A program made the position numbers and the translations under genes. From contig JBAZGG010000001.1 of assembly GCA_041653015.1 (NCBI GenBank), positions 53,206 to 117,205 on the forward strand: a DNA stretch of 64,000 bases. Reading direction: 5' to 3'. This DNA is from Bacilli bacterium (GTDB taxonomy: Bacteria > Bacillota_I > Bacilli_A > RFN20 > CAG-826). This document shows positions 33,883 to 37,364 of this stretch, piece after piece. Each line of letters opens with the position of its first letter. Positions within the stretch are counted from its first letter, which is position 1. The notes beneath the pieces are model-generated. The model saw only the letters and a program-made list of their open reading frames with translations. It did no database searches and had not been told where the DNA came from.

Positions 33883-36495
33883 GTGGGAAAGATTGATCAA
33901 AAACGGACTCCGTACCTTGATGCGTTAAAGAATTACCTAAGTCACGAAGTTACTCCATTTGATGTCCCTGGACATCACATGGGAAATGTGCCGAATAAAT
34001 TAAAAGATTTTGTTGGAAAGAGGTTATTTGAATGCGACATTAATGCTCCGTTGGGCCTAGATAATTTAGCTAATCCTAACGGTTGTTTACGAGAGGCGGA
34101 ACTCCTGATGGCGAATGCTTGCCATGCAGACGATGCCTTCTTTTTAATCAATGGCACCACCAGCGGAATTCTTGCAATGATTCTAACGGCGTGCAGAGCA
34201 AATGACAAAATTATCCTTCCACGAAACATACATAAGTCTGTCGTCAATGCACTGGTGATTTCTGGTGCGATGCCAGTCTATGTGATGCCGAGGATTGACA
34301 TGCAACTAGAGATTGCCAATCAACCGACCGTCGATGATTATAAGAAAGCCATCATTCGCTATCCGAGCGCAAAGGCTATCTTTGTTATCAATCCAACATA
34401 CTTTGGTGCGGTCAACGATTTAAAAACATTGGTTGATTTCGCCCACGCTCATAATGTTGCTGTTCTAGTGGATGAAGCGCATGGATGTCACTATTATTTT
34501 AATGAGAGCGGACCGCTCTCGGCGATGCAAGCTGGCGCCGATATGTCGAGTGTAAGCTTTCATAAAACTGGGGGGTCCTTGACTCAATCGAGCGCCTTAT
34601 TGATAAAAGGAAATCGTTTTTCCAGTTGCGAAGTGCAAAAATCCTTAAATATGATCAATACCACTTCTCCTAGCACGATTTTGATGGCGAGCCTCGATGC
34701 TGCGCGCTCATATATGGCGACCGAAGGACAAAAAGAACTGTATCAAACGATTGAACTCTGCCATTATGCACGAGAGCAAATCGCTAATATCAAAGGCTTT
34801 ATACCATGTAATAAAGACTATTTTGTAAAGCATGGTTGTTTCGATTACGATGAGACAAAACTCGTCATCGAATTAGACCGCATTGATATGTCTGGTTTTG
34901 ATCTATATCGCCTGCTTAAAAATAGATATGATATTCAAATTGAACTCGCTGAAACGTATGTCTTTCTTTGCATTTTTGCAATTGGAACTAAAAGGGAACA
35001 CGTTCGAAAACTCATCAATGCATTAAAAGAAATCTCTAAAGAGCACTATCATAAGAATATGTCATACCCTAAGCATCATTACGCTTTGGATTTTCCATTT
35101 CCTCTCATTCGTCCTCGCGCCTCTTTCCACTCTCCGAGCAAGCGCATGAAAATAGAGAATGCGGCGTTTGAAATCTCGAAAGAGCAAATTATGATTTATC
35201 CTCCGGGAATCCCTTTGATTGTCCCCGGTGAAGTCTTTACTCCCGAGATTATTGAAAGGTTGCAGAGTTATCAAAAGATAGGAATCACTATTTTGAGCGA
35301 TTATCACGATGGGACTGTCAACGTCATCGATCGCGATAAATGGAAACATTATTCGGATTATGAAAAACATCTCGTCGATTATTTTAACAATCGCAAAACA
35401 AATCCTACAAATGACCATTTCTTTGTTCCGTTTGAGGGATGCAAACACGATGCGACATTAATGCTTCTTCCATTTAGAAAAGATACTTGGAGAAGAGCGG
35501 CTAAACCAGCTCGCGACACTTTCAAAGAGGTGATTCAAGCGATTGCCAGACACGAGAGGGTCATCCTCGGTATTCACCCCGTCATATATGACAAAGTTAT
35601 CGATGAATTTGCCAGCATTGAAAATGTCGAATGTATGAAAGTAAAATACAACGACGCCTGGGCAAGAGACAATATGCCTCTATTTGCCTCGAATGGAGAA
35701 AAACTTAGAACGATCGACTTCCGTTTTAATGCCTGGGGTGGAAATTTCGATGGTTTATATAGCAATTATAAGGATGATGATCGATTGTCTAGTTTCATCG
35801 CCAAAAAACTAAATCTTGATAACTATTATATCAATGATTTTGTTCTCGAAGGTGGCTCGATAAATGTCGATGGCGAAGGCACCTGCTTAGTCACTGAAGC
35901 TTGTCTCTTGTCTCCAGGGCGAAACCCCACTCTCGATAAAAACGACATCGAAGAAGTTTTAAAGACCTATCTCAATGTCGAAAAAGTCATTTGGGTTCCT
36001 CATGGCATATATCAGGATGAGACTAATGAGCATGTCGATAATATGGTGTGTTTTATCCGCCCAGGAGTGGTGGCACTCGCATGGTGTGACGACAAAAATG
36101 ACACTCAATATACATATTCAAACGAAGCCTACAGAGTTCTGTCAAAAGAGACGGATGCAAAAGGAAGAAAACTTGAGATTGTCAAAATCAAATTGCCATC
36201 GCCTCAATACATGACAGAAAAAGAAGCAAAACACATCAGCAAATCTAGATATAATGCAAAGCATAGAGAAGCTAATTCGCGATTAGCGGCCTCTTATATT
36301 AATTTCTATCAAGGCAAGGATTTTGTAATCATACCCGCCTTTGGCGACAAAGAGGATGAAGTGGCGCGTAAAGCAATTTCTAAATTGTATCCAGATAAAG
36401 AGATTATTCAGATCTATTCTCGAGAAATACTGCTCGGTGGTGGGAATATTCATTGCATCACAATGCAATTGCCGAGCCCGGAGGTTATCAAATGA
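33883..36495 (+). CDS. Bifunctional fusion: fold-I PLP arginine/lysine/ornithine decarboxylase (SpeA-like) N-terminal + agmatine deiminase (AguA) C-terminal
   Basis: N-terminal half has the Orn/Lys/Arg decarboxylase major domain with PLP lysine motif SFHKTGGSL. C-terminal half has agmatine deiminase signatures EGGSINVDGEGT and the terminal GGGNIHCITMQ catalytic Cys. GTG start with GAGGT RBS. Confidence 0.8.
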   Translation: MGKIDQKRTPYLDALKNYLSHEVTPFDVPGHHMGNVPNKLKDFVGKRLFECDINAPLGLDNLANPNGCLREAELLMANACHADDAFFLINGTTSGILAMILTACRANDKIILPRNIHKSVVNALVISGAMPVYVMPRIDMQLEIANQPTVDDYKKAIIRYPSAKAIFVINPTYFGAVNDLKTLVDFAHAHNVAVLVDEAHGCHYYFNESGPLSAMQAGADMSSVSFHKTGGSLTQSSALLIKGNRFSSCEVQKSLNMINTTSPSTILMASLDAARSYMATEGQKELYQTIELCHYAREQIANIKGFIPCNKDYFVKHGCFDYDETKLVIELDRIDMSGFDLYRLLKNRYDIQIELAETYVFLCIFAIGTKREHVRKLINALKEISKEHYHKNMSYPKHHYALDFPFPLIRPRASFHSPSKRMKIENAAFEISKEQIMIYPPGIPLIVPGEVFTPEIIERLQSYQKIGITILSDYHDGTVNVIDRDKWKHYSDYEKHLVDYFNNRKTNPTNDHFFVPFEGCKHDATLMLLPFRKDTWRRAAKPARDTFKEVIQAIARHERVILGIHPVIYDKVIDEFASIENVECMKVKYNDAWARDNMPLFASNGEKLRTIDFRFNAWGGNFDGLYSNYKDDDRLSSFIAKKLNLDNYYINDFVLEGGSINVDGEGTCLVTEACLLSPGRNPTLDKNDIEEVLKTYLNVEKVIWVPHGIYQDETNEHVDNMVCFIRPGVVALAWCDDKNDTQYTYSNEAYRVLSKETDAKGRKLEIVKIKLPSPQYMTEKEAKHISKSRYNAKHREANSRLAASYINFYQGKDFVIIPAFGDKEDEVARKAISKLYPDKEIIQIYSREILLGGGNIHCITMQLPSPEVIK

Positions 36496-37364
36496 TCATA
36501 AAAGTGGCTGCGACGCAGATGTCTCTTTCTTGGGATATCGAGTCCAATATTCGAAAAGCTGATGAAATGGTGAGAAAGGCTGCTCGATCAGGAGCTAATA
36601 TCATCCTTTTACCAGAACTTTTTAAAACGCCATATTTCTGTCAAATTGAGAACTATGATTATTTTTCTCTAGCAGAAGACTTTTCTACTTCACCATTTTT
36701 AAAACATTATGCTGAACTCGCTAAAGAATTAAATGTCGTTCTTCCGATTTCGTTCTTTGAAAAGCAAGGCAATGTATTCTTTAACTCTATCGCGATGATG
36801 GATGCCGATGGAAAATGTTTGGGCATCTATCGCAAGACGCACATCCCGACTGGCGAATGTTATGAAGAGAAGTTTTATTTCGCTCCTGGTGACACCGGCT
36901 TTAAGGTTTTTCATACTAAATTTGGGAAAATAGGAATTGGAATTTGCTGGGATCAGTGGTTCCCAGAAACGGCGAGGTCGCTCGCTTTAAATGGCGCAGA
37001 GATACTGCTTTATCCAACCGCGATTGGCAGTGAACCAATTCTTCCAAAGGATTCCAAAAACCATTGGCAGAATGTTATGAAAGGGCATGCGGCGGCAAAT
37101 ATTATGCCGGTTGTAGCCTCAAACCGGGTGGGCATCGAAAAAGACAAAAGTTCATCCATGACTTTTTTTGGTAGCTCTTTTATTGCCGATGAAGAAGGCG
37201 ACATCGTCGAGGAACTAAACAGAACGGAAGAGGGATACATCGTTCAAAAGTTTGATTTAGAAGCGATAGCGAAAAAGAGATATTCATGGGGCGTATTTAG
37301 AGATCGCCGACCAGAATTTTATAAAGATATCATCAGAGTTCATGCGAACAAGAAGCAAAAATAA
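36492..37364 (+). CDS. aguB: N-carbamoylputrescine amidase
   Basis: CN-hydrolase family. Begins MIIKVAATQM. Catalytic region GIGICWDQWFPE. ATGA overlap with the upstream fusion gene. Confidence 0.85.
   Translation: MIIKVAATQMSLSWDIESNIRKADEMVRKAARSGANIILLPELFKTPYFCQIENYDYFSLAEDFSTSPFLKHYAELAKELNVVLPISFFEKQGNVFFNSIAMMDADGKCLGIYRKTHIPTGECYEEKFYFAPGDTGFKVFHTKFGKIGIGICWDQWFPETARSLALNGAEILLYPTAIGSEPILPKDSKNHWQNVMKGHAAANIMPVVASNRVGIEKDKSSSMTFFGSSFIADEEGDIVEELNRTEEGYIVQKFDLEAIAKKRYSWGVFRDRRPEFYKDIIRVHANKKQK

Follow-up and report, generated by a model that had tools for sequence, protein, structure and literature searches.

A decarboxylase-agmatine deiminase fusion overlapping aguB: a putative two-gene route from arginine to putrescine in RFN20-type Bacilli

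Do two overlapping genes of a Bacilli bacterium suffice to convert arginine to putrescine? The question is raised by a locus in the assembly GCA_041653015.1 (GTDB order RFN20, family CAG-826), of which a stretch of 64,000 nucleotides on contig JBAZGG010000001.1 was analysed (positions 53,206 to 117,205; here called the window, whose own numbering is used for all coordinates). A prediction made from the letters of this stretch alone (the original prediction) had reported an open reading frame (ORF) of 870 amino acids (aa) that joins a decarboxylase dependent on pyridoxal 5'-phosphate (PLP) to an agmatine deiminase and is followed by a gene for AguB. The ORF was found exactly as described, at 33883..36495 on the forward strand, with 870 codons, a GTG start and a TGA stop. 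The decarboxylase domain was N-terminal and the agmatine deiminase domain C-terminal. The two genes probably form a putrescine module, in which a natural bifunctional enzyme and AguB would together lead from arginine to putrescine; we hold this reading with good, though not full, confidence.

The decarboxylase domain comprised residues ~1-485 (33883..35337, forward strand) and was identified from Pfam matches, invariant motifs and tree placement. OKR_DC_1 (PF01276) matched residues 9-323 from profile position 1 with an E value of 7e-67, and OKR_DC_1_C (PF03711) matched residues 404-462 with an E value of 3e-7. The GTG start agreed with the N-termini of homologues, which share the consensus MxKLxQNKTPYLDAL. 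The motif SFHKTGG, already quoted in the original prediction, was located at residues 225-231, VDEAHG at residues 196-201 and SFHKTGGSLTQSS at residues 225-237; all three were invariant among the fusions. Lys228 (codon 34564..34566, forward strand) lay in the S-x-H-K motif and is the predicted PLP Schiff-base lysine. It aligned with the HK motif of the solved homologues 2x3l and LdcC. The N-terminal REC/'wing' domain was absent and the domain size was within ~480-490 aa. Matches of the extended forms LdcC and AdiA to this half began at their residue ~125-140. Because it is without the REC/'wing' extension of Escherichia coli-type enzymes, the half is classed by its domain make-up as an 'ancestral-form' ornithine/lysine/arginine decarboxylase of the aspartate aminotransferase (AAT) fold, as defined by Li et al. 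2021 (PMC8503589). The earlier term 'SpeA-like' holds in the sense of the Bacillus-type AAT-fold ancestral form and fails in the sense of E. coli SpeA.

The agmatine deiminase (AguA/AIH) domain comprised residues ~505-865 (35395..36477, forward strand). PAD_porph (PF04371) matched residues 515-864 with an E value of 5e-108. Against the NCBIfam equivalog model for agmatine deiminase, TIGR03380, the domain scored 432.9 bits with a cut-off of 381.8 and covered profile positions 2-356 of 357. It aligned end to end with five solved agmatine deiminases (2ewo, 6nib, 1vkp, 3h7c and 2jer; E 1e-81 to 1e-91), including the conserved Cys of GGGNIHCIT. The motif GGGNIHC occupied residues 852-858, so that the predicted catalytic nucleophile is Cys858 (codon 36454..36456, forward strand). 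The pentein active-site residues C858, H717, D719, D591, D596 and E656 were all present. The deiminase was therefore complete and kept its catalytic Cys, as had been proposed.

Conservation was assessed on 123 fusion sequences, and a separate alignment of 40 sequences was also made. In the decarboxylase domain, G30, H31, T92, E198, H200, G201, S225, H227, K228, G231, S232, T234 and Q235 were invariant in the set. In the deiminase domain, D591, D596, E656, H717, D719 and C858 were kept in 122 of the 123 sequences.

A survey of the fusion frequency, which had been proposed together with the original prediction, found the fusion to be common. In a protein search over 5.8 billion proteins, at least 120 clusters of ~870 aa carried both domains, with 62-97% identity. 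At least 148 species-level genomes encoded a relative in a scan of one genome per GTDB species. The best 80 of these were examined as loci. All 80 held full-length fusions, with 54-66% identity, and all were uncultured metagenome-assembled genomes (MAGs) of Bacilli from gut, rumen, faeces or digesters. Genome labels among the fusion carriers included Bacilli/Bacillales UBA..., Candidatus Enteromonas, Alloenteromonas, Acholeplasmataceae, 'Erysipelotrichaceae RUG...' and 'uncultured Mollicutes', and one genome was a closed chromosome of 1.06 Mb (OX437086.1). Ca. Enteromonas is the GTDB genus UBA733 of the family CAG-826, order RFN20, with genomes of ~1.2 Mb (PMC8035907). Among 1.84 billion representatives clustered at 50% identity, the full-length architecture was represented by two sequences, P0121 and the divergent P0122. 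By their decarboxylase domains, all fusions formed one monophyletic group in 100 of 100 neighbour-joining bootstraps. The fusion therefore had a single origin and spread mainly by descent. It is a real and conserved joining of known enzymes that is common in MAGs and uncharacterised.

Ten of the loci came from records of the type ...-L1_cleanbin_... (L046, L048, L049, L054, L058, L059, L063, L066, L067 and L072) and were titled Escherichia coli, Bacteroides uniformis, Alistipes communis, Faecalibacterium prausnitzii, Prevotella and others. They carried a Bacilli-type fusion and aguB at 59-60% identity, and the organism labels look wrong. Other fusions were also encountered. P0215 (1051 aa; L093 1793-4948, L094 1893-5048) joined an Orn/Arg decarboxylase of the alanine-racemase fold (PF02784 and PF00278) to a PAD_porph agmatine deiminase domain. 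It was present on two independent contigs from different metagenomes and adjoined an F420 ligase gene, with no aguB adjacent. This sequence suggests that decarboxylase-AguA fusions arose more than once. A functional link between decarboxylase and AguA is supported, since a non-homologous decarboxylase was also fused to AguA. P0138 (734 aa) held an NNMT/PNMT-type methyltransferase N-terminal to an ancestral-form decarboxylase, and P0170 (556 aa) joined a 5-formyltetrahydrofolate cyclo-ligase to an agmatine deiminase; both were found on short metagenome contigs only.

The next gene in the window was aguB (36492..37364, forward strand), encoding a predicted N-carbamoylputrescine amidase of 290 aa. 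Its product scored 451.7 bits against TIGR03381, the N-carbamoylputrescine amidase equivalog (cut-off 410.25), and matched PF00795 with an E value of 4e-60. The nitrilase-superfamily triad Glu42-Lys115-Cys152 was present, with Cys152 within the motif ICWDQWFPE. The claim that this gene is aguB and starts within the stop codon of the fusion was borne out: in the ATGA at 36492-36495, the ATG of aguB (36492-36494) overlapped the TGA of the fusion (36493-36495). The Shine-Dalgarno sequence of aguB, GGAGG (36480..36484, forward strand), precedes its ATG by 7 nt and falls within the 3' terminus of the fusion ORF. The arrangement was strictly conserved. In 78 of 78 loci extending beyond the fusion stop codon, aguB was directly downstream on the same strand. 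The estimated gap was -44 to +14 nt in 77 of the 78, with the same 4-nt overlap in 23, and GGAGG or GGAG was present at the equivalent position in most of them. The fusion and aguB are probably translationally coupled via the ATGA overlap and the internal GGAGG.

Upstream of the fusion gene, a Shine-Dalgarno-like GAGG was located 7 nt before the GTG (33872..33875, forward strand). A candidate sigma-70-like promoter, TTGAAA-16 nt-TATAAT, lay directly upstream of the gene at 33831..33858 on the forward strand; as a consensus match only, it agreed at 11 of 12 positions and was the top site of the scanned region. Rfam gave no riboswitch or RNA leader ahead of the module; its sole match in the window was the transfer-messenger RNA (tmRNA). 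The release factors RF1 and RF2 were both encoded in the window, and prfB contained a CTT TGA C +1 frameshift site at 59686-59692. TGA is thus a genuine stop in this Mollicutes-like, reduced-genome lineage. The prfB gene (RF2) itself extended over 59614-60730 on the forward strand, with an ATG at 59614 and the main ORF continuing in the +1 frame after CTT TGA C.

In the proposed pathway, the N-terminal PLP site with Lys228 would convert L-arginine to agmatine and CO2. The C-terminal site of the same chain would then convert agmatine to N-carbamoylputrescine and NH3 with the thiol of Cys858. AguB, which would be made in step with the fusion via translational coupling, would convert N-carbamoylputrescine to putrescine, CO2 and NH3. 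Consecutive steps are favoured because both active sites and aguB were strictly co-conserved. The conversion of arginine to putrescine by two ORFs, as originally suggested, is the best-supported reading, given aguB in every locus that extended far enough, the invariant active sites and a tree placement on the side of the arginine decarboxylases (ADCs). The two hydrolytic steps are the same as in the AguA/AguB (AIH/NCPAH) pathway of plants, Pseudomonas aeruginosa, Streptococcus pneumoniae and Bacteroides thetaiotaomicron, and both proteins passed the equivalog models. The AguA domain was ~50% identical to plant AIH and to the agmatine deiminase of Streptococcus mutans. Unlike in that pathway, AguA of the window was the C-terminal half of a decarboxylase polypeptide, and aguB overlapped its stop codon.

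The decarboxylase is, in our assessment, very probably specific for arginine, which is a judgement of high confidence drawn from sequence comparison. Arginine specificity is favoured because of the gene context of relatives, an anchored tree, the PLP motif, the distinction from YaaO and the Rosetta-stone logic of a conserved AguA fusion together with aguB. Known ancestral-form AAT-fold ADCs include SpeA of Bacillus subtilis, SP_0916 of S. pneumoniae and the enzymes of C. difficile and H. thermocellum (Li et al. 2021, PMC8503589). Like these, the N-terminal domain belonged to the same fold family (PF01276 and PF03711), comprised ~485 aa without REC/wing and carried the same PLP-lysine motif. 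It shared the signature HK(T/S/L)GGSLTQSS and fell on the same side of the tree as the S. pneumoniae ADC. Unlike these, it was covalently joined to the next pathway enzyme and was only 37-39% identical to the two characterised ADCs that were retrieved, its activity being predicted from sequence.

Anchors for the tree were fetched with short sequence fragments flanking the PLP lysine, read from the supplement of Li et al. 2021, where text recognition (OCR) of Figs S3 and S4 was largely corrupted, and were then verified in databases. They were the ADCs of S. pneumoniae (P0452) and of the B. subtilis group (P0326), the C. botulinum-type ornithine decarboxylases (ODCs) P0462 and P0460, the Thermoanaerobacterium ornithine/lysine decarboxylase (O/LDC) type P0381 and the Fusobacterium ODC fusion P0151; the set was without the H. 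thermocellum, C. difficile, Psychrilyobacter and M. blatticola enzymes. The ODC and O/LDC anchors formed an exclusive clade in 99 of 100 bootstraps. In 99-100 of 100, a split separated these anchors from the fusions, P0125, P0129 and the S. pneumoniae ADC. The PLP-region motif of the fusions, HKTGGSLTQSS, equalled the rows of characterised ancestral-form ADCs, unlike the ancestral-form ODC rows with HKI(I/L)G(A/S); this is a weak indication, as the rows came from the OCR source. Two standalone relatives had informative neighbours. The gene of P0125 (45% identity) overlapped an arginase-fold gene of the agmatinase family, and P0129 (42-43% identity, from a Mycoplasmatota genome) was located in a cluster of speD, the decarboxylase gene, speE and an arginase-fold gene. 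A Psychrilyobacter enzyme in the same arrangement was assayed as an ADC (PMC8503589).

That the fusion decarboxylase is the paralogue YaaO was considered and rejected. YaaO is recognised by a gene position directly adjoining tmk on its upstream side (Li et al. 2021, PMC8503589). In the window, tmk was located at 48883-49515 on the reverse strand, and its immediate upstream neighbour was recR (49518-50117), not a decarboxylase gene; the fusion lay ~12 kb away on the other strand. YaaO-like representatives carried HKTLPAL and clustered apart from the fusions. The surrounding region, 46256-52155 on the reverse strand, was the conserved Firmicutes tmk locus dnaX-ybaB-recR-tmk-holB-PSP1-rsmI, with no yaaO-type decarboxylase upstream of tmk. 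At its canonical site, this organism appears to lack the YaaO paralogue linked to modification of elongation factor P.

Several points weigh against the arginine-to-putrescine reading. Pairwise identity did not discriminate: the decarboxylase was 39% identical to the S. pneumoniae ADC, 37% to the B. subtilis-group ADC and 38-40% to the ODC and O/LDC types. Tree topology and gene context were used for specificity because identity to the anchors cannot separate ADC from ODC. The trees were neighbour-joining only, with 100 bootstraps, and the sister relationships of the fusion clade were weakly supported (35-38%). The gene context of six of the eight standalone relatives (P0126, P0127, P0128, P0130, P0131 and P0134) held no clue to the substrate. 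Within the ancestral-form family, specificity has switched repeatedly and has defied prediction from context (Li et al. 2021, PMC8503589). The C. botulinum enzyme is an ODC although AIH and NCPAH are encoded; in Fusobacterium, the decarboxylase fused to a dead arginase-like domain is likewise an ODC (both PMC8503589). Neither the window nor the ~6 kb around the fusion in the 80 genome loci yielded speD, speE, speB or a polyamine transporter. A further point came from P0122, a divergent fusion with 46% identity (L002 8001-10592, ENA ERZ27245259, contig k141_254391), in which D591, D596, E656, H717, D719 and C858 were all replaced. Its decarboxylase motifs were intact, and the contig ended 237 bp past the gene. 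Judged by these replacements, the AguA-like domain of P0122 has become a pseudo-enzyme, a parallel to the Fusobacterium ODC fusion with its dead arginase domain. The two activities can therefore become uncoupled.

Of the other explanations, the one that survives best keeps the chemistry and changes its purpose. The module would then be catabolic or protective: protons would be consumed, two NH3 would be released for pH homeostasis or as a release of nitrogen, and putrescine would be excreted as waste. The cell would become more alkaline through two decarboxylations and two deaminations, as follows from the established chemistry of the pathway. The hosts, anaerobes of gut or rumen, have genomes of ~1-1.4 Mb, and the absence of speD and speE from the loci also fits. 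However, the ATP-yielding agmatine deiminase system of Enterococcus and S. mutans (AgDI) requires putrescine carbamoyltransferase, carbamate kinase and an antiporter in addition to aguA. No match to putrescine carbamoyltransferase, carbamate kinase or an agmatine/putrescine antiporter was obtained in the ~45 ORFs scanned in the 64 kb window, nor were they among the neighbours in related loci. The route is therefore regarded as hydrolytic and of the biosynthetic type, rather than as the ATP-yielding catabolic system. The AguA domain is homologous to that of AgDI, with 2jer and 2ewo as top structural-sequence matches. Unlike AgDI, the window route would hydrolyse N-carbamoylputrescine by a nitrilase-family amidase, so that no ATP would be made. 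The hydrolytic AguA/AguB route serves polyamine biosynthesis in plants, Pseudomonas, S. pneumoniae and Bacteroides, according to two publications (PMC8503589; PMC10135574), and the decarboxylase was without the acid-inducible 'wing' form. A catabolic or protective purpose is consequently considered unlikely, and supply of the polyamine putrescine in reduced-genome gut RFN20-type Bacilli is the most likely role.

Less likely still is that the decarboxylase acts on ornithine (or lysine) and that AguA and AguB process agmatine taken up from the gut, the fusion then joining two parallel routes to putrescine. The precedents for this lie in the same family, namely the C. botulinum and Fusobacterium ODCs named above, and identity to the ODC-type anchors was no lower than that to the ADC anchors. 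The tree spoke against it, as the fusion clade was split from the ODC and O/LDC clade and grouped with an assayed ADC and agmatinase-linked enzymes, and the motif around the PLP lysine was of the ADC type. No agmatine/putrescine transporter adjoined the module in the window or in two related loci with annotated neighbours. The strict co-conservation of both active sites with aguB also fits consecutive steps better than parallel ones. We infer from this that arginine is the substrate, and give the ornithine or lysine alternative a small probability.

It is very improbable that one domain of the window protein has lost catalysis and serves as a pseudo-enzyme for structure or regulation. Such a case is known from Fusobacterium nucleatum, where a protein of 783 aa joins an ancestral-form ODC to an arginase/agmatinase-like domain (Li et al. 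2021, PMC8503589), and P0122 lost every AguA catalytic residue within the fusion family itself. In the window protein and in 122 of 123 homologues, in contrast, all checked catalytic residues of both domains were kept, and the AguA domain scored above the equivalog cut-off. The Fusobacterium protein is the closest described architectural precedent. Its partner domain is arginase-fold with lost Mn ligands and its decarboxylase is an ODC, whereas the partner in the window is a pentein-fold agmatine deiminase with intact catalytic residues and the decarboxylase groups with ADCs. The two kinds of fusion arose independently. An assembly or frameshift artefact joining two separate genes, for which no supporting point was found, is refuted by an identical protein with the same neighbours on an independent Logan contig and by the continuous frame and conserved, ordered junction that recur in the at least 120 independent clusters and the 80 species-level genomes from many studies, which also settles the frameshift check raised with the original prediction.

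Preferring the bifunctional arginine-to-putrescine module, the question follows how the two active sites are connected. The junction comprised residues ~486-504 (35338..35394, forward strand) and was short and ordered. In the AlphaFold2 (AF2) model of the fusion, with a mean predicted local distance difference test (pLDDT) of 80.9 and a predicted template modelling score (pTM) of 0.81, residues 481-510 had a pLDDT of 84-91 and a helix was predicted at 494-503. Conservation of the junction among the 123 fusions was 0.64-0.79, with little length variation. The low-confidence loops of the model, 52-61, 201-205 and 230-233, were active-site loops. In fold-type I enzymes, the second subunit of the dimer completes active-site loops of this kind. 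A rigid junction makes it plausible that agmatine is channelled from one fused active site to the other, but this is a speculative proposal. The further-reaching view, that the polypeptide is a true channelling machine with a defined oligomer in which agmatine never equilibrates with the cytoplasm, and that the module is the sole polyamine pathway of RFN20-type gut Bacilli, is doubtful. Another polyamine-pathway fusion is S-adenosylmethionine decarboxylase (SAMDC)-aminopropyltransferase (Green et al. 2011, as cited in PMC6356823). It likewise places consecutive polyamine-biosynthetic enzymes in one polypeptide, and differs in the steps and in the enzyme families.

The downstream genes of the module, encoding 5'-nucleotidase, patatin, RluA-type synthase, DUF1538, P-II and YfhO, were common to a 63%-identical relative on a 1.4 Mb contig, and were present in part in 25-49 of the 80 loci. 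Two activase-like genes and an esterase gene closely preceded the module in the window. The region 28671-32836 (forward strand) held the gene of a 980-aa protein in which BcrAD_BadFG ATPase repeats are combined with a 'CoA enzyme activase' domain (DUF2229); another DUF2229-related gene came next, and a BD-FAE esterase was located at 32882-33811. In relatives, the two activase-like genes were beside the module in 0 of 80 loci and the esterase gene in 12 of 80. Further upstream, the tmRNA gene (22391-22776) lay within the region 20579-28560. Five ORFs of this region were without a Pfam or PHROG match (20579-21646, 21699-22319, 22930-24228, 24331-25299 and 25361-25819), and a 900-aa protein (25858-28560) had an Ig-like Big_2 domain as its sole match. 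At 26-28 kb, GC content was slightly higher (0.44) and GC skew was reversed. A prophage or island in this block found no support: the 3' end of the tmRNA was not convincingly repeated as an att-like site, phage hallmark genes were absent, and PHROG matched only the Ig-like domain.

The original prediction had regarded a SpeA-AguA fusion as uncharacterised. No paper describing a decarboxylase-AguA fusion was found in the full-text literature or the most relevant polyamine papers, a search of incomplete coverage in which an earlier mention may have been missed. The fusion had not gone unseen, however, as it is common in databases under the name 'agmatine deiminase'. NCBI uses this name, and JGI uses 'lysine decarboxylase' or 'arginine decarboxylase'. 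The present assignment corrects the annotation of 870-aa proteins named only 'agmatine deiminase' or 'lysine decarboxylase'.

If the inferred activities are true, the protein would be, as far as found, the first described arginine decarboxylase-agmatine deiminase bifunctional enzyme. It adds incrementally to a well-mapped pathway and is not a new kind of biology. The fusion offers a simple test case of whether joining consecutive polyamine enzymes brings channelling, and the Rosetta-stone link may help to assign specificity in a decarboxylase family that is hard to predict. For the organisms, the module would mean a compact two-gene route from arginine to putrescine across an entire clade of uncultured gut and rumen Bacilli with small genomes. 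Should the channelling and sole-pathway view also be true, RFN20-type Bacilli would supply animal guts with putrescine made from arginine, a source that had gone unrecognised.

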